Shown here: positions 2,971 through 19,597 of the stretch, in pieces
Layout: each line of letters starts with the position of its first letter
Numbering within the stretch: the first letter of the stretch is position 1
Assembly: GCA_964404025.1 (NCBI GenBank)
Contig: CAYOIJ010000005.1
Span: 1 to 63,228 of the forward strand
DNA length: 63,228 nucleotides
Source of the DNA: an uncultured Pseudomonadales bacterium
Lineage (GTDB): Bacteria > Patescibacteriota > Microgenomatia > UBA1400 > PJMF01
Direction of reading: 5' to 3'
Made by a program: the position numbers and the translations under genes
The notes under the pieces: generated by a model
The model's input: the letters and a program-made list of their open reading frames with translations, nothing else
Database searches by the model: none
Told to the model about the DNA's origin: nothing

Positions 2971-3672
2971 ATGTCAAAATTAAATAAAAATAAGTTTTTT
3001 AAATCTCAAGCTTTTTACTTGGCAACTGGCTTGATAGTCATAATTTCATTATTTTTCACTATACCAATGATCAATGCCCAAACCGAATCAGAAGCTAGCG
3101 AAGAATCAACCATCTCTAACATCAAAAAAGTCATCCAAGACAAACAGCTTGAACTGGGTCAAGGCAATCAACAATCCGCACAGCTTAAACAAGCCTATCT
3201 TGCTCAAGTCAAAAGAGTAAGCGCAGAAACTCTCACTGTTCTTAACAACCAAACTAACATTGTAGTTCCTCTAAGTGAAAATTTAGAAATTCTTAAAGAA
3301 GATGAACAAATAGAAGTTGATGAAATTGCGGTTGATGATTGGATAATTGTTTACAGCGTGGTTGAAGAAGACCTTTGTATTCCCAAAAGAATTTTATTAA
3401 CAGAAAAAAACTTTACTCAAGAAGACCGCAAGATAATGATTGGTACTATCACCGAACTCTACTCTAGTAACTTACTATTTGACTCTCGAACTGGAGAAAG
3501 TGATTTAAATTTTTTATTAAATAAAAACACTCAATATTTTGATGACAGCGGAGATGAGATAAGCCTAAGGGATCTCTACTCTGACCTCCAGTGTCTAATT
3601 ATCGCTACTGCTAAAAAAGACGGTCAATGGCTGGTCAGTAGCCTTAAAGCCTTGGTCAATTTAGTTAATTAG
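2971..3672 (+). CDS. Membrane-anchored hypothetical protein (beta-rich, DUF5666-like)
   Basis: TAA-ATG abutting the previous gene; N-terminal TM; two beta-rich modules. Confidence 0.55.
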   Translation: MSKLNKNKFFKSQAFYLATGLIVIISLFFTIPMINAQTESEASEESTISNIKKVIQDKQLELGQGNQQSAQLKQAYLAQVKRVSAETLTVLNNQTNIVVPLSENLEILKEDEQIEVDEIAVDDWIIVYSVVEEDLCIPKRILLTEKNFTQEDRKIMIGTITELYSSNLLFDSRTGESDLNFLLNKNTQYFDDSGDEISLRDLYSDLQCLIIATAKKDGQWLVSSLKALVNLVN

Positions 3673-3746
3673 TGGACCTGAGGGAAATCGAATCCCTGAC
3701 CTCTGCAATGCGAATGCAGCGCTCTAGCCAACTGAGCTACAGGCCC
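3673..3746 (-). tRNA. tRNA-Ala(CGC), CCA not encoded
   Basis: GGGCCTGTAGCTCAGTTGGCTAGAGCGCTGCATTCGCATTGCAGAGGTCAGGGATTCGATTTCCCTCAGGTCCA; anticodon CGC; G3:U70 alanine identity pair. Confidence 0.96.
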
Positions 3747-3808
3747 GTTTTTTTATTAAAAAATTAAACTCAAAAGCTTAATCCAAGCAAATTATAACAA
3801 ATAATTGT

Positions 3809-3837
3809 TTGACTAATGCGCCTAAAAAACATATAAT
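3809..3837 (+). promoter_or_regulatory. Sigma70 promoter for the His leader/hisS transcript
   Basis: TTGACT (3809-3814), 17-nt spacer, TATAAT (3832-3837). Confidence 0.8.
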
Positions 3838-3846
3838 ATTCCCCTG

Positions 3847-3897
3847 ATGCAAAAATTAATTGCTCAAATTCTAGCGGTTCATCATCACCACTCGTAA
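3847..3897 (+). CDS. His leader peptide MQKLIAQILAVHHHHS (16 aa)
   Basis: ATG CAA AAA TTA ATT GCT CAA ATT CTA GCG GTT CAT CAT CAC CAC TCG TAA; four consecutive His codons upstream of hisS. Confidence 0.85.
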   Translation: MQKLIAQILAVHHHHS

Positions 3898-3964
3898 GAG
3901 GGGATGTTTTGTATTGCTTAAATGAGCAAATAATAATTAATCCCCTGACAACGGGGATTTTTTT
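3883..3964 (+). promoter_or_regulatory. Transcription attenuator with 1:2, 2:3 and 3:4 hairpins
   Basis: 1:2 CATC-A-CC-A-CTC/GAG-GG-GATG (3883-3906); 2:3 AGGGGAT (3899-3905)/ATCCCCT (3940-3946); terminator AATCCCC/GGGGATT (3939-3959) with T-run to 3964. Confidence 0.82.
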
Positions 3965-3993
3965 GTACAATAAATTATAAATAAAAGGATAAT

Positions 3994-5244
3994 ATGAAAA
4001 AAAATAATCAACTACAAACACTTAAGGGCTTTCGTGACTTTTTACCTGCGGAAGCTGATTTACGAGAACAAGTGCGCTCTATCATTCAAAATAGTTTTAG
4101 GCGTTTTGCTTTTGTGCCTTTTGAAACCCCTACCCTAGAGTATGCCAGCCTATTGCTGGGTAAATATGGTGAGGAAGCAAACAAATTACTATATACTTTT
4201 ACTGATCGAGGTGGTCGACAACTCGGTTTGCGCTATGATCAAACAGTGCCTACAGCCAGAGTATTAGCCAACTATCAAAATGAATTGCCCAAATTTTTGC
4301 GTCGCTATCAAATTCAAACCGTCTTTCGAGCAGATAAGCCTCAGCGTGGCCGTTATCGAGAATTTATGCAATGTGATGCTGATATTTTTGGCAGTCGCTC
4401 TACTCTAGCTGACGCAGAAATCCTAGCCCTTTTCTATGATATTTTTAAAAGCTTAGGTCTGACTGAGATTCAAATTGAATACAATGATCGACAGCTTTTA
4501 GTTGATAGTTTTAGCGACTTGGCTAATGATCAAATTTCAGTTTTATCTATTATTCAAAGCATCGATAAACTGGATAAATTAACACCCGAAAAAGTTGCTA
4601 ATGAACTCATGACTAAGGGTCTTGATCAAGAAGAAGTTGATAGTATTTTTGTTAGATTAGCAAATATTGATAAATCAGATAATTTAAAAGAAATTGAACA
4701 AAAAACTATAGAACTCGGAGTACCTCAAAATGCTCTAGTTTTTAACCCAAAAATAGCTCGTGGTTTAGACTACTATACTGGTTTAATTTTTGAAGGAAAA
4801 ATTACTAAATATAGCAGTGGCAGTTTGGGAGCGGGTGGTCGCTATGACAATTTAATTGGAGAACTAGCAGGCTTAGACACCCCAGCCGTGGGTTTTGGTT
4901 TAGGTTTTGATCGTATTGTTGAGATCATTAAAGAAAAAGCTCAGTTGAAACCCAGCCCTAGCGCTCAAGTTTTGATCAGTATTTTCGACGATCCTCTTTG
5001 TCAAAAAAAGGCCCTAAGATTAAGCAGTAAACTAAGATCAAGCGACATCAGCAGCGAAATTTATCTAGAAAAAGACAAAATTGCTAAACAATTTAAGTTA
5101 GCAGAAGATAAAAACATTCCCTGGGTAGTAATCATTGGCAGTGAAGAAGTAGAAAAAAACTACTTCAGCCTAAAAAATTTGAGCACAGGCCAACAAAAAA
5201 AACTTGACTTACAAGAACTAATTAAAACAATTCAAGCCAAGTAA
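3994..5244 (+). CDS. hisS: Histidyl-tRNA synthetase
   Basis: LKGFRDFLP, LRYDQTVP, GRYREFMQCDADI, ARGLDYYTG, GGRYDNL. Confidence 0.98.
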   Translation: MKKNNQLQTLKGFRDFLPAEADLREQVRSIIQNSFRRFAFVPFETPTLEYASLLLGKYGEEANKLLYTFTDRGGRQLGLRYDQTVPTARVLANYQNELPKFLRRYQIQTVFRADKPQRGRYREFMQCDADIFGSRSTLADAEILALFYDIFKSLGLTEIQIEYNDRQLLVDSFSDLANDQISVLSIIQSIDKLDKLTPEKVANELMTKGLDQEEVDSIFVRLANIDKSDNLKEIEQKTIELGVPQNALVFNPKIARGLDYYTGLIFEGKITKYSSGSLGAGGRYDNLIGELAGLDTPAVGFGLGFDRIVEIIKEKAQLKPSPSAQVLISIFDDPLCQKKALRLSSKLRSSDISSEIYLEKDKIAKQFKLAEDKNIPWVVIIGSEEVEKNYFSLKNLSTGQQKKLDLQELIKTIQAK

Positions 5245-5299
5245 AAAAATAAATCCACTGTTTGGGGATGAATTTTTTATGTTATAATCACTGTTCGTT

Positions 5300-5728
5300 A
5301 TGAAACAAAATATACATCCAGACTGGCATCACGATTGCGTAGTAACTTGTAGCTGTGGTAATAGCTTTGTTACTGGAGCAATGAGCAAAACCTTAAGTGT
5401 AGATATTTGCAATGCTTGTCACCCATTTTTTACTGGTGAAATGAGATTTGTTGACCGCCAAGGCCGAGTTGATAAATTTATTAAAAAACGAGCCACTGCT
5501 GAAGCTCTTGCTAAAGCTAAAAAAAGTGCCAAAAAAGCTACTCAAAAAACAACTGCTCCTGTTAAATCTTACAAACAAATTCTACAAGAACAACAACAAG
5601 CTATCAAAAACTTGAAAAAATCAACAATTGTTAATGAAAAAGAGGCTAACAACGATAAAAAAGCAGTTGTCACCGACACAAAAACTGCAAAAACCGATAG
5701 GCCTAAAGTCGCTAGCAAAAAAAGCTAG
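5300..5728 (+). CDS. rpmE: 50S ribosomal protein L31 with Lys/Ala-rich C-terminal extension
   Basis: MKQNIHP, CSCG...CNACHPFFTG, GRVDKF. Confidence 0.95.
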   Translation: MKQNIHPDWHHDCVVTCSCGNSFVTGAMSKTLSVDICNACHPFFTGEMRFVDRQGRVDKFIKKRATAEALAKAKKSAKKATQKTTAPVKSYKQILQEQQQAIKNLKKSTIVNEKEANNDKKAVVTDTKTAKTDRPKVASKKS

Positions 5729-5803: not shown

Positions 5804-6808
5804 ATGACAAAACAACTAAATCCATACAGCGCTGCCATTGAACGCTGTAAGGAACAATTAAAAAATAATCAGAACTTACTCACTGACCCAAATTTTGCTG
5901 ATCCCAAAATGCAAAAGCTCGTTCAAGAAGAAATCAGTCAACTAGAAACAGAACTAAAAACTCTTGAATCAGCCGCAACAGCGCTACAAGAAGATCAAGA
6001 GCCTCAAGCAAATGATTCGACTCAAGAGATTCAAAAATCTAACGCTATTATAGAAATTCGTGCTGGAGCTGGTGGCGATGAAGCTAAGATATGGGCTAGT
6101 GAGCTAATGCGCATGTATCAAAAATTTTGTTTCAACCATAACTTAAAAATTGAACTCGTTGACGACTTGGTGTTTAAAGTTAAGGGTAACGCTCAGTTGC
6201 CAGTTTTTCAGCTAGTAAAAGAAGATAAAACTGAAGAATTGCTTGCAACTGAAAAAACAGAGCAACTGAGTGCGTTTAATTTACTGCGCTTTGAGGCTGG
6301 AGTGCACCGGGTACAACGTGTCCCCAGCACCGAGTCTCAAGGCCGTTTACATACTTCTACTGCTTCAGTGGCTGTTTTACCAGAAATCCACGCCAAAGCC
6401 ATTGAGATTAGAGATGAAGACTTAGAATTACAATTTATGCGAGCTAGTGGTGCTGGTGGCCAATCAGTTAATAAAACTAGTTCAGCGGTTCGTCTAACTC
6501 ATATTCCCAGCGGGATAGTAGTAGTTGCCAGAAGTGAGCGTAAACAAGTGCAAAATCGCCAGATTGCCCTAGAGCTACTTAGAGCTAAATTGTGGGAAAT
6601 TGAAGAAGAAAAAAAAGAGGCAGCTCTTGGCTCTGCTCGAGAAAGCATTGGTCGCAGCATGCGCGCTGAAAAAATCAAAACTTATAATTTCCCTCAAAAT
6701 CGAGTCACCGACCATCGTATTAAACAATCCTGGCATAATTTAACTGAAATTCTAGATGGTAAGCTTGAAACTGTCATTGCCGGATTTAGAGCTTATTTAA
6801 AACAATAA
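5804..6808 (+). CDS. prfA: Peptide chain release factor 1
   Basis: EIRAGAGGDEA, GVHRVQRVPSTE (PxT), GGQ, KTYNFPQNRVTDHRI. Confidence 0.95.
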   Translation: MTKQLNPYSAAIERCKEQLKNNQNLLTDPNFADPKMQKLVQEEISQLETELKTLESAATALQEDQEPQANDSTQEIQKSNAIIEIRAGAGGDEAKIWASELMRMYQKFCFNHNLKIELVDDLVFKVKGNAQLPVFQLVKEDKTEELLATEKTEQLSAFNLLRFEAGVHRVQRVPSTESQGRLHTSTASVAVLPEIHAKAIEIRDEDLELQFMRASGAGGQSVNKTSSAVRLTHIPSGIVVVARSERKQVQNRQIALELLRAKLWEIEEEKKEAALGSARESIGRSMRAEKIKTYNFPQNRVTDHRIKQSWHNLTEILDGKLETVIAGFRAYLKQ

Positions 6809-13372: not shown

Positions 13373-14899
13373 TTAGATTTTTCTTATCAGCAGCTCGTTA
13401 TTTTCCATATCTAAAAGCTCAAAACCCTGTTCTTTAATTTCTGCTCGATACTCATCAGCTTCGGCAAAATTTTTTTCTTGACGAGCAATTTGGCGCTTTT
13501 CTATCAAGTTTCGCACTTGAGCTGGCAAGTCTGCCAAGCGCAAGCCCTCTGCTTCCAGACCCAGGCTTTGAGCCAAATCCGGATCAATTGTTTTTTTATT
13601 TAAAGATTGACGTAGAGATTTTAGCAAGAACTCTTCACTCAATCCTGCCAAACCTAATCCTAAAACCTGATCAAACTCCATAATTAATCGGTATAAAATA
13701 TCAGCTTCTAAATCACTCTTAAGCAATTCCCACAGCACTGTTAGCGCTTCATTTGTTTTTAAATCATTTTCTAGAGCTGCAAAAAAATCACTACGCAACT
13801 GCATTGCTCCTGGGAAATCATTTAGTTCAATTTCTCGGTTGTCTTTGTTAGCACGCAACTTCAACACAAAATAAGTTAATTTTAAATAAGCCTTGTGAGC
13901 GGCCTGCAAACTATCCCAGGTAAAATTCTGTTCACTGCGATAATGACTCATTAAAAACAATAGGCGTAGAGCCTTAGGTAAATAGCCCCGTTCAATAATA
14001 TTGTCTATGGTATAAAAATTGTTGAGAGATTTACTCATTTTTTTTCCCTCAACAAACAAATGGTTGTGATGCACCCAATAGCGACTAAAGGGCTTTTTGC
14101 CAGTTACAGCTTCAGATTGAGCTATTTCATTACTATGATGGACGTTAATATGATCAATTCCTCCAGTGTGGATGTCGATCTGATCTCCTAAGTGCTCAAT
14201 GGCCATGGCACTGCACTCAATATGCCAACCTGGAAAACTCCGTTCATGCCAGGGGCTGGGCCAAACCATTTGTCTATTTTCTCCTGGACGTTCAAATTTC
14301 CATAGAGCAAAATCAGTTGGGTTTTTGCGCCCAGGCACTTTATCTACTCGCTCACCTTCACGTTGCGCTGTTAAAACTTGCTTAGCTAGCTGGGGATCTT
14401 GATTGATTAACTTTCCATAATCATCAATTTTGCTAGTATCAAAATATACTCCATCACCCTCTATCACATAAGTTAGCTCTTTTTTTTCAAGTGCCAAGAC
14501 CATTTCTAGTTGAGCTTGAATGTGATCTGTAGCACGACAGCTAAGACTAGGACGTAATACTCCCAACAAATCCATACTATAAAAAAAATAATCTTCAAAA
14601 CGACGAGCTAGAGCTGTTGCGTCAGTGCCATATTTTTTGGCACCTTTTTCTAATTTATCTTCACCAACATCATCGTCACTAACCAAATGGCCAACATCGG
14701 TGATATTTTGTACATGTTTGACTTCATAGCCACCATGACGCAGTGTTCTCACTAAAACATCATCTAAAACATATTTTCGTAAGTGACCTAGATGGGTATA
14801 ATCATAAACAGTTGGACCACAAGCATACAATTTAACAAAATTTTCTTCTTGTGCTTGAAATTCTTCTATCGATCGCGAAGCGGTGTTGTAAAGTTTCAT
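13373..14899 (-). CDS. cysS: Cysteinyl-tRNA synthetase
   Basis: CGPTVY, HLGH, PGWHIECSAM, DIHTGG, KMSKS. Confidence 0.98.
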   Translation of the reverse strand: MKLYNTASRSIEEFQAQEENFVKLYACGPTVYDYTHLGHLRKYVLDDVLVRTLRHGGYEVKHVQNITDVGHLVSDDDVGEDKLEKGAKKYGTDATALARRFEDYFFYSMDLLGVLRPSLSCRATDHIQAQLEMVLALEKKELTYVIEGDGVYFDTSKIDDYGKLINQDPQLAKQVLTAQREGERVDKVPGRKNPTDFALWKFERPGENRQMVWPSPWHERSFPGWHIECSAMAIEHLGDQIDIHTGGIDHINVHHSNEIAQSEAVTGKKPFSRYWVHHNHLFVEGKKMSKSLNNFYTIDNIIERGYLPKALRLLFLMSHYRSEQNFTWDSLQAAHKAYLKLTYFVLKLRANKDNREIELNDFPGAMQLRSDFFAALENDLKTNEALTVLWELLKSDLEADILYRLIMEFDQVLGLGLAGLSEEFLLKSLRQSLNKKTIDPDLAQSLGLEAEGLRLADLPAQVRNLIEKRQIARQEKNFAEADEYRAEIKEQGFELLDMENNELLIRKI

Positions 14900-18988: not shown

Positions 18989-19597
18989 ATGAATTTGAGT
19001 ACTTTTACACTTGGCGATTTACAAACTAATTGCTATTTACTTGATAATAATCAAGAAGCAATGATTATTGATCCTAGTGATGATGGTGATTTTTTAAATG
19101 AAGAGCTAAGTCGAAATAATTTACAGTTAAAAGCAGTAGTCTTAACCCATGGTCACTTCGATCATTGTTTGGGTCTATTAAGCTTAGCTGTTTCTTGGCC
19201 TCAATTAAAAATTATGCTTCATCCTAAAGATAATTTCTTACTGGCCCAAGCCCATGATAGCGCTCTACATTGGTTAGGTCGCAACGCTGATCCCGTACCT
19301 AAGGCCAATCAAGAACTTAGTGATGGACAAAAAATCAAATTGGGATCAGAAGCTCTGGAAGTTATTCATACGCCAGGACATACCCCGGGCAGTATTTGCC
19401 TATTAAGTGATAAGCAAGAAAACGGAGAAAGATATTTATTTAGTGGCGACACCCTATTTGCTAATGGCGTGGGTCGCACAGATTTCAGCTATAGCAGCCA
19501 TCAAGATTTACTAAATAGCCTAGCTAAACTAAAAAAGCTTAAACAAGATAATCAATATTCACTTGTCTTAGCTGGTCATGGTGAAAGTTTTTATTAA
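18989..19597 (+). CDS. MBL-fold hydrolase (glyoxalase II-like)
   Basis: THGHFDH, HTPGHTPG, SGDTLF, AGHG. Confidence 0.9.
   Translation: MNLSTFTLGDLQTNCYLLDNNQEAMIIDPSDDGDFLNEELSRNNLQLKAVVLTHGHFDHCLGLLSLAVSWPQLKIMLHPKDNFLLAQAHDSALHWLGRNADPVPKANQELSDGQKIKLGSEALEVIHTPGHTPGSICLLSDKQENGERYLFSGDTLFANGVGRTDFSYSSHQDLLNSLAKLKKLKQDNQYSLVLAGHGESFY

Follow-up and report, generated by a model that had tools for sequence, protein, structure and literature searches.

Why should hisS, the gene for histidine--tRNA ligase, be preceded by a near-consensus promoter, a 16-codon open reading frame (ORF) with four consecutive His codons and an intrinsic terminator? The question is raised by a 63,228-nucleotide (nt) stretch of DNA, contig CAYOIJ010000005.1 of GenBank assembly GCA_964404025.1 (hereafter the window), which is recorded under the name of an uncultured Pseudomonadales bacterium and placed by GTDB in the Patescibacteriota. 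The answer favored here is that the region upstream of hisS is probably a functional His-sensing leader-peptide attenuator, through which the transcription of hisS would be set by the supply of charged tRNA-His. This reading is based on three kinds of observation: the sequence elements themselves, the alternative folds available to the leader RNA, and the recurrence of the same arrangement with fixed geometry in related bacteria.

The leader of hisS and its alternative folds

The leader occupies the intergenic region 3747-3993, between a minus-strand tRNA-Ala(CGC) gene (3672-3746) and hisS, the product of which is full-length in profile searches, with the anticodon-binding region included. The following features are considered:

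3809-3837, plus strand: promoter P1, with -35 TTGACT at 3809-3814, a 17-nt spacer and -10 TATAAT at 3832-3837
3847-3897, plus strand: leader ORF, 16 codons encoding MQKLIAQILAVHHHHS, followed by UAA (3895-3897)
3880-3891, plus strand: four tandem His codons, CAT CAT CAC CAC, the proposed sensing codons
3855-3934, plus strand: helix 1:2 (3855-3893 with 3898-3934), candidate anti-antiterminator and probable pause hairpin, which sequesters AGGGGAU
3899-3905, plus strand: 5' strand of the antiterminator, AGGGGAU, the core of segment 2, 19 nt past the first His codon and 4 nt past the first base of the stop codon
3907-3910, plus strand: U-tract right behind the 1:2 hairpin, a possible hairpin-dependent pause signal
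3940-3946, plus strand: segment 3, AUCCCCU, which can pair with 3899-3905 (antiterminator) or with 3953-3959 (terminator)
3939-3964, plus strand: intrinsic terminator, with a 7-bp stem (AATCCCC 3939-3945 / GGGGATT 3953-3959), a 7-nt loop and a T-run at 3958-3964
3984-3989, plus strand: Shine-Dalgarno sequence of hisS, AAAGGA, unpaired in the minimum free energy (MFE) structure of the full leader
3994-5244, plus strand: hisS, histidine--tRNA ligase, 416 amino acids (TIGR00442, 383.9 bits against a cutoff of 286.75), the gene proposed to be regulated

An initial annotation, made from the sequence alone, had described a near-consensus promoter, a 16-codon His ORF, the pairing segments 1:2, 2:3 and 3:4 and a terminator with seven Ts, and all of these were recovered at the same positions when the sequence was checked. 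P1 agrees with the consensus at 11 of 12 positions, is the top promoter-like site within 3000-5500 and is kept in five related loci (L001, L002, L003, L004 and L081). Transcription from P1 is predicted to start at about 3844-3845. The leader ATG at 3847 lies 9 nt past the -10 element and is accompanied by no Shine-Dalgarno sequence, and the ORF, situated 96 nt upstream of hisS, is apparently leaderless or provided with a leader of only 2-3 nt. The CAYCAYCAYCAY pattern (four consecutive CAY codons) is present two times in the 63-kb window, where shuffled sequences lead one to expect 0.03. The other occurrence, 19077-19088 on the minus strand, is antisense within an ORF for an MBL-fold hydrolase (18989-19597) and is not a leader.

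The leader RNA is predicted to adopt either of two mutually exclusive states. The RNA 3844-3966 has an MFE of -36.9 kcal/mol (z = -5.2), and none of 200 shuffled sequences folded as well. In the MFE structure, 3880-3893 is paired with 3898-3906, the His codons being paired with GAGGGGAUG, and the terminator is formed. The 1:2 pairing of the initial annotation is thus present, but its extent had been understated: the helix joins 3855-3893 with 3898-3934, is much longer than described and involves most of the leader ORF. Folding the 3' part alone resulted in pairing of AGGGGAU (3899-3905) with AUCCCCU (3940-3946), with an inner hairpin (UUGCUU 3914-3919 / GAGCAA 3924-3929) that shortens the antiterminator loop. 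The 7-T run of the terminator, which is kept throughout the window clade, ends 29 nt before the hisS ATG at 3994, and both this start codon and its Shine-Dalgarno sequence are unpaired in the MFE structure of the full leader.

In these predictions, the choice between the two states depends on the position of a ribosome, represented by masking a footprint of 13 nt that begins with the A-site codon. When the masked ribosome stands at His codon 1 or 2, the RNA folds into the antiterminator and makes none of the seven terminator pairs, whereas all seven are made in the free RNA or with the masked ribosome at the stop codon.

The proposed course of events would be as follows. RNA initiated at P1 would carry its AUG 2-3 nt from the 5' end, and a ribosome would load without a Shine-Dalgarno sequence and translate the 16 codons. 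When His-tRNA-His is plentiful, the ribosome would reach the UAA at 3895-3897 and cover AGGGGAU with its footprint; AUCCCCU would then pair with GGGGAUU, the terminator would form, and RNA polymerase would stop at about 3962-3964. When His-tRNA-His is scarce, the ribosome would stall while its A site holds His codon 1, 2 or 3, melting the 5' half of helix 1:2 and leaving AGGGGAU exposed to capture AUCCCCU as soon as the latter is made, so that the terminator would be blocked and transcription would enter hisS. If the ORF is not translated at all, 1:2 and 3:4 would both form and transcription would terminate.

Recurrence and geometry in related hisS loci

Related loci were collected by scanning genome_contigs and metagenome_contigs with the HisS sequence of the window as the query, and by further scans of genome_contigs with a 17-sequence HisS alignment and with the HisS of locus L007, which gave a sample of about 97 Patescibacteria-type hisS loci. 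The L007 search added just two closer relatives, L242 and L243, neither of which has a leader. The closest HisS relatives all come from metagenome-assembled genomes (MAGs) of the Patescibacteria/Microgenomates type, including Pacebacteria, Roizmanbacteria, Woesebacteria, Shapirobacteria and Beckwithbacteria, and this supports the initial assignment of the DNA to what is probably a bacterium belonging to the candidate phyla radiation (CPR). Many of the MAG records, assembled by third parties, bear titles such as "uncultured Pseudomonadales", "Gammaproteobacteria" or "Enterobacteriaceae" (L001, L002, L004, L005, L196 and others); their HisS sequences cluster with Patescibacteria, and the titles cannot be relied on for taxonomy.

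A short promoter-proximal ORF with a run of His codons, followed by a terminator, was found at 19 distinct hisS loci, about one-fifth of the sample, with HisS identities to the window from 85% down to about 39%. The attenuator interpretation put forward in the initial annotation is strengthened by this recurrence of the His-run ORF, the terminator and the antiterminator before hisS, and the His runs and helices that it had proposed to look for in relatives were indeed present there, with different sequences and conserved geometry. In the close clade (70-85% HisS identity), the entire leader is conserved, and the orthologous peptides are MQKLIAQTLATHHHYS, MQKLIAQTLAVHHHHS, MQKTIAQLLVAHHHLC and MQKTIAQVLVAHHFPI. 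The distant loci (about 39-60% identity) have unrelated short ORFs with the His run near the C-terminus, then a hairpin and a T-run before hisS. The number of His codons varies from two to six across the loci. The leader peptides of the individual distant loci are:

L007: MSVIFRNSSVAHHHSHILCEGFCVVS
L163: MQKQNAKVSAFHHNLSI
L164: MKDTKTKLITHHHSHMQGS
L165: MLQNTILLATHHHSHI
L169: MKRFIIVPSHHILHHNLR
L174: MLLSNATTQVHHHTLL
L180: MNTFLHTHHHHHYFRGLCF
L182: MSNNSTQPVAAHHHHA
L183: MQYKTTKNTESHHHPLSRGL
L184: MLGLNLITTVIHHPHVFRRG
L189: ..FHHPRHTVRG
L191: MDTLSQVKHHHART
L196: MKITVIKNNHHNLP
L036: MIENIVVKRSCENHHHQLIKELAVVLCR

In a rough neighbour-joining tree, 16 of the 19 leader loci fall into one clade of 38 HisS sequences, where they are interspersed with members whose loci have no leader; this distribution suggests an old element that has repeatedly been lost.

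The association of the His run with hisS is far from what chance would provide. HHH inside small ORFs (8-40 codons) was counted in 250-nt upstream regions (n = 82) and was present in 10 of them, against 0.02 expected from shuffles and 0 of 82 on the opposite strand; no other amino acid was in comparable excess upstream of hisS. In the 1.35 Mb of fetched loci, scanned on both strands, the combination of an HHH small ORF and a terminator was confined to the upstream regions of hisS and to the hisS strand (16 hits, corresponding to 12 distinct loci). Over all fetched loci, 12 distinct His-run peptides were followed by a terminator versus 21 instances without one, the corresponding share for other well-populated amino acids being about 4-8%; His was the one amino acid to stand out in this comparison.

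A further regularity concerns the distance between the His codons and the antiterminator. Each of the 19 loci has a G-rich strand that is complementary to the terminator's 5' arm and begins 17-28 nt after the first His codon. This strand either falls within the 3' part of the ORF or begins no farther than 6 nt past the first base of the stop codon. Since from 1 to 13 codons follow the last His, the spacing does not simply follow from the length of the ORF. The complementarity exceeded that of shuffled controls in 14 of 18 loci (p <= 0.022), and the paired sequences themselves differ from locus to locus: AGGGGAU:AUCCCCU, GGGAGUUGAU:AUCAAACUCCC, CAGAGGGUU:AACCCUCUG, GCGGCUUGUGU:ACACAACCCGC and AGGAGGG:CCCUCC. 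A GC-rich hairpin with a T-run is present in all 19, its distance to hisS varying from 26 to 115 nt.

The folds with a masked ribosome were extended to the same loci. All 19 form the terminator when the ribosome is at the stop codon, and 10 of the 19 have no terminator in their equilibrium fold when it is at the first His codon. When the ribosome was placed at the first His codon and the 3' arm of the terminator had not yet been made, 5-8 nt of the 5' arm were already paired upstream at every one of the 19 loci, which makes co-transcriptional antitermination plausible throughout.

Two further observations concern the leaders as a set. Counted strictly, 12 of the 19 loci have TTTT within 12 nt behind the antiterminator strand, versus a background of 0.11, and a U-tract is visible by eye in three more (L007, L165 and L169). 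Situated behind the 1:2 hairpin, this tract resembles a hairpin-dependent pause signal that may synchronise the polymerase and the ribosome. The leader start codons of the 19 loci lie 6-13 nt past a -10-like hexamer, with no visible Shine-Dalgarno sequence. Given the transcription starts predicted from these hexamers, the ORFs of the relatives appear leaderless or nearly so, in keeping with the "essentially leaderless" leader peptide of the initial annotation.

One locus extends the arrangement to tRNA-His. In L036 (2600-3000; the contig is shared with L249), a His leader ORF ending in ..ENHHHQLIKELAVVLCR and a terminator are followed by tRNA-His(GUG) at 2777-2850 and hisS at 2968, and the tRNA as well as its synthetase appears to be under the control of the attenuator. 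The record of this contig is titled Gammaproteobacteria, despite which its HisS groups with Woesebacteria/Microgenomates in the tree. In another Patescibacteria MAG (L172), tRNA-His(GUG) at 886-958 is also directly upstream of hisS, but no His-codon leader ORF is found there.

Points against the proposed attenuator and rival explanations

Several observations weigh against the attenuator. In L003/L083, a clean natural deletion of about 82 nt, within a region (L003 2895-3003) that aligns with window 3840-3940, removes the leader ORF and the antiterminator strand but retains P1 and the terminator, the latter 30 nt before hisS. The expression of hisS therefore cannot rest on antitermination alone, and in these variants it must come from either leakage through the terminator or a second promoter. 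Just two His codons are left in the leaders of L004/L006/L084, and in the window part of AGGGGAU would lie under a ribosome that stalls at the fourth His codon. In 9 of the 19 loci, the terminator stays the equilibrium structure despite the stalled ribosome, and these loci would need kinetic control. The initial annotation had looked to covarying helices as a check, and this gave no clear signal: at the distant loci the pairings are kept with different sequences that cannot be aligned column by column; in the close-clade alignment (seven sequences) the core helices show no variation, the alignment of the variable part is poor, and four pairs changed on both sides compare with 3.0 in shuffles, which does not convincingly exceed the controls. 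Moreover, every functional step, from the transcription start and leaderless initiation through ribosome stalling, U-tract pausing and termination to the response to histidine, is inferred from sequence, and leaderless initiation and transcription-translation coupling are only presumed for these organisms.

Could the leader work without being translated? As an RNA-only or factor-dependent attenuator, or as a small RNA gene, it might for example bind HisRS, tRNA-His or some other factor, the His codons being incidental. Its fold is very stable (z = -5.2), the L003/L083 variant keeps the promoter and the terminator without the ORF, and in Escherichia coli the thrS synthetase offers a precedent, since it binds its own leader to regulate. 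Such a device would not account for in-frame His runs that recur right after the -10 element in 19 loci of divergent sequence, specifically for His and for the hisS strand, or for the conserved spacing between the His codons and the antiterminator strand; besides, the peptide outside the His run is not conserved, as a sensor ORF predicts, and no T-box or other Rfam family was detected in the leaders. This explanation is regarded as improbable. A functional His-rich micropeptide merely co-transcribed with hisS is less probable still. His-rich peptides may bind metals, and the N-terminus MQK[LT]IAQ is conserved in the close clade; the codons for this N-terminus, however, coincide with the 5' strand of helix 1:2, the His run alone is common to the loci beyond the close clade, and the ORF is associated solely with hisS and with the terminator/antiterminator pair.

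It is also conceivable that stalling at the His codons is sensed as proposed but that the output is something other than intrinsic termination, namely Rho-dependent termination, mRNA decay or control of hisS translation. The leaderless poly-Cys short ORFs of mycobacteria, which sequester a ribosome-binding site (bioRxiv 10.1101/834739), show that another output is feasible, and the thermodynamic dominance of the terminator at any ribosome position in nine of the 19 loci would also fit it. This possibility is judged to be just as improbable as an untranslated regulator, given that a GC-rich hairpin is directly followed by a T-run at every locus and that it is the terminator's 5' arm to which the antiterminator strand is specifically complementary. 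Control by sequestering the ribosome-binding site of hisS, in particular, was rejected: because this site is unpaired in the window and the distance from the terminator to hisS varies so widely among the loci, a transcriptional output is favored. Ribosome-mediated attenuation at the terminator is accordingly retained as the preferred explanation.

Known attenuators, genomic context and implications

Searches against Rfam place the leader in no known family, since tRNA was the only family to reach its gathering score, both in the window region and across 18 related loci. Membership in His_leader (RF00514) was rejected, with no match at E <= 10 in 3600-4100 and none at the gathering score in the 18 related loci; the T-box (RF00230) was likewise rejected, with no match in either. 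The one suggestive hit was to Phe_leader, which the window leader matches weakly over its full length (23 bits, E = 0.15, the gathering score being 55); it reflects a shared architecture, not membership.

The proposed mechanism is the one used by the hisL and trpL attenuators of enterobacteria. A close parallel in design is the enterobacterial hisL leader, with its tandem-His ORF, its 1:2 / 2:3 / 3:4 helices and its intrinsic terminator, where charged tRNA-His is sensed via the position of the ribosome. In contrast to hisL, which serves biosynthesis genes and has seven His codons and a Shine-Dalgarno sequence, the leaders described here precede a synthetase gene, have two to six His codons and lack a Shine-Dalgarno sequence, and there is no detectable homology between hisL and the window leader. 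His-leader attenuators of his operons have also been reported in several Firmicutes (PMC9413887).

Attenuation of synthetase genes is not new in itself. Classical attenuators are known or predicted on gamma-proteobacterial pheST and on Streptomyces trpS and leuS (PMC1262725), and the Streptomyces synthetase-gene attenuators are attributed to Vecchione and Sello (2010) as cited in PMC4787780. These attenuators share with the hisS leader a peptide rich in the cognate amino acid and a terminator/antiterminator before a synthetase gene, low charging leading to more synthetase, but they concern other amino acids and other phyla and show no sequence relationship. In bacilli, a His leader has been predicted upstream of the hisS paralog hisS* and of hisZ (Naville and Gautheret 2010; PMC2965389). 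There too, a His-codon ORF and a premature terminator stand before a hisS-family gene, and both cases are predicted by comparative genomics only; however, the bacilli are Firmicutes that make histidine, the leader serves an extra paralog and the biosynthesis regulator hisZ, and the main hisS uses a T-box, whereas here the target is a full-length hisS in a lineage generally devoid of amino-acid biosynthesis. The T-box of Firmicutes hisS acts on the same gene, responds to the same signal (tRNA-His charging) and makes the same choice between terminator and antiterminator, but unlike the proposed leader it binds uncharged tRNA directly, with no need for translation. The mycobacterial poly-Cys ORFs have, as is predicted for the hisS leader too, the sensor at or near the 5' end, no Shine-Dalgarno sequence and a run of the sensed codon (bioRxiv 10.1101/834739), but they unmask a ribosome-binding site, thus acting on translation, and control Cys metabolism, whereas the hisS leader has an intrinsic terminator and an unpaired ribosome-binding site.

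No description of such an element in Patescibacteria or the CPR was found by full-text searches on leader peptides, attenuation and riboswitches, and to that extent the novelty suspected in the initial annotation stands; it is narrowed by the earlier synthetase-gene attenuators (PMC1262725) and by the His leader of the Bacillus hisS paralog (PMC2965389). Judging from these comparisons, the leader would represent a known mechanism, ribosome-mediated attenuation, in a form non-homologous to the known leaders and new for this lineage. Its distinctive properties are the lineage itself, the apparently leaderless initiation, the synthetase target in a presumed auxotroph and the variant that also covers tRNA-His.

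The initial annotation had supposed an organism with no visible His biosynthesis that would draw on host-derived histidine. The presumed auxotrophy derives from the literature on Microgenomates, published genomes of which lack amino-acid biosynthesis pathways (PMC7143001), and histidine auxotrophy is plausible on this ground. The window has 62 ORFs that reach 120 amino acids, and none of the 38 scanned encodes a His biosynthesis enzyme, although 63 kb cannot settle their absence from the whole genome; the 38 are housekeeping genes (dnaB, ssb, rpsF, recR, tmk, dut, thyA, topA, mrdA, cysS and others). Among the 5' untranslated regions of the window, only the hisS leader has a clear terminator, and no codon-run ORFs of the leader-attenuator type were found before tgt, 47522, 56110 (minus strand) or prc. 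The cysS gene (13373-14899, minus strand) was rejected as a leader-regulated candidate: it lies 27 nt behind the preceding ORF and has no leader.

Two other -10-like sites flank the leader. The reverse complement of 3791-3799 is TGTTATAAT, an extended -10 fit to drive tRNA-Ala, and together with P1 it places two promoters back to back; a divergent tRNA-Ala(CGC) gene also stands beside hisS in L001-L004, L006, L081, L163, L173, L174 and L182. On the other side, right behind the terminator, the block TTTTTTGTACAATAAA (3958-3975) is invariant in the window clade and holds the -10-like hexamer TACAAT (3965-3970). This hexamer could be the -10 element of a second, unregulated hisS promoter; neither a convincing -35 element nor a properly spaced TG was found for it.

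Two genes downstream of hisS are also unusual. The rpmE ORF (5300-5728) encodes 142 amino acids, of which L31 profiles cover residues 1-67 only, leaving an unexplained C-terminal extension of about 75 residues. The ORF for release factor 1 (5804-6808, 334 amino acids) is matched by prfA profiles from profile position ~45-54 onward and below the curated cutoffs, and the protein is shortened or divergent.

Gene regulation in the CPR is almost unknown; few members have been cultured, and the genomes are small, with few regulators. A conserved hisS attenuator would show that these bacteria use classical ribosome-coupled attenuation, with initiation that is apparently leaderless, and that a presumed auxotroph sets the level of its synthetase, and in one lineage also of tRNA-His, by the charged tRNA-His. 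The broader proposition, that leaderless His-codon ORFs have long regulated hisS throughout the Microgenomates-type Patescibacteria and, in at least one lineage, regulate a tRNA-His-hisS unit, is a matter on which the chances are even. If it is true, no amino-acid-sensing cis-regulatory device would have been described in the CPR before these leaders, transcription and translation would be tightly coupled in these cells, and bacteria that must import histidine would tune their charging capacity, not biosynthesis, to the charged-tRNA pool. Other synthetase or transporter genes might then have ribosome-sensed leaders too, the hisS leader being one of a larger group. The natural variants provide a ready mutational series: they have two to six His codons, place the antiterminator strand within the ORF or behind it, and include a form from which the sensor is cleanly deleted. 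In metatranscriptomes, the ratio of the terminated transcript (about 120 nt) to the readthrough transcript would report the histidine sufficiency of these bacteria in situ.

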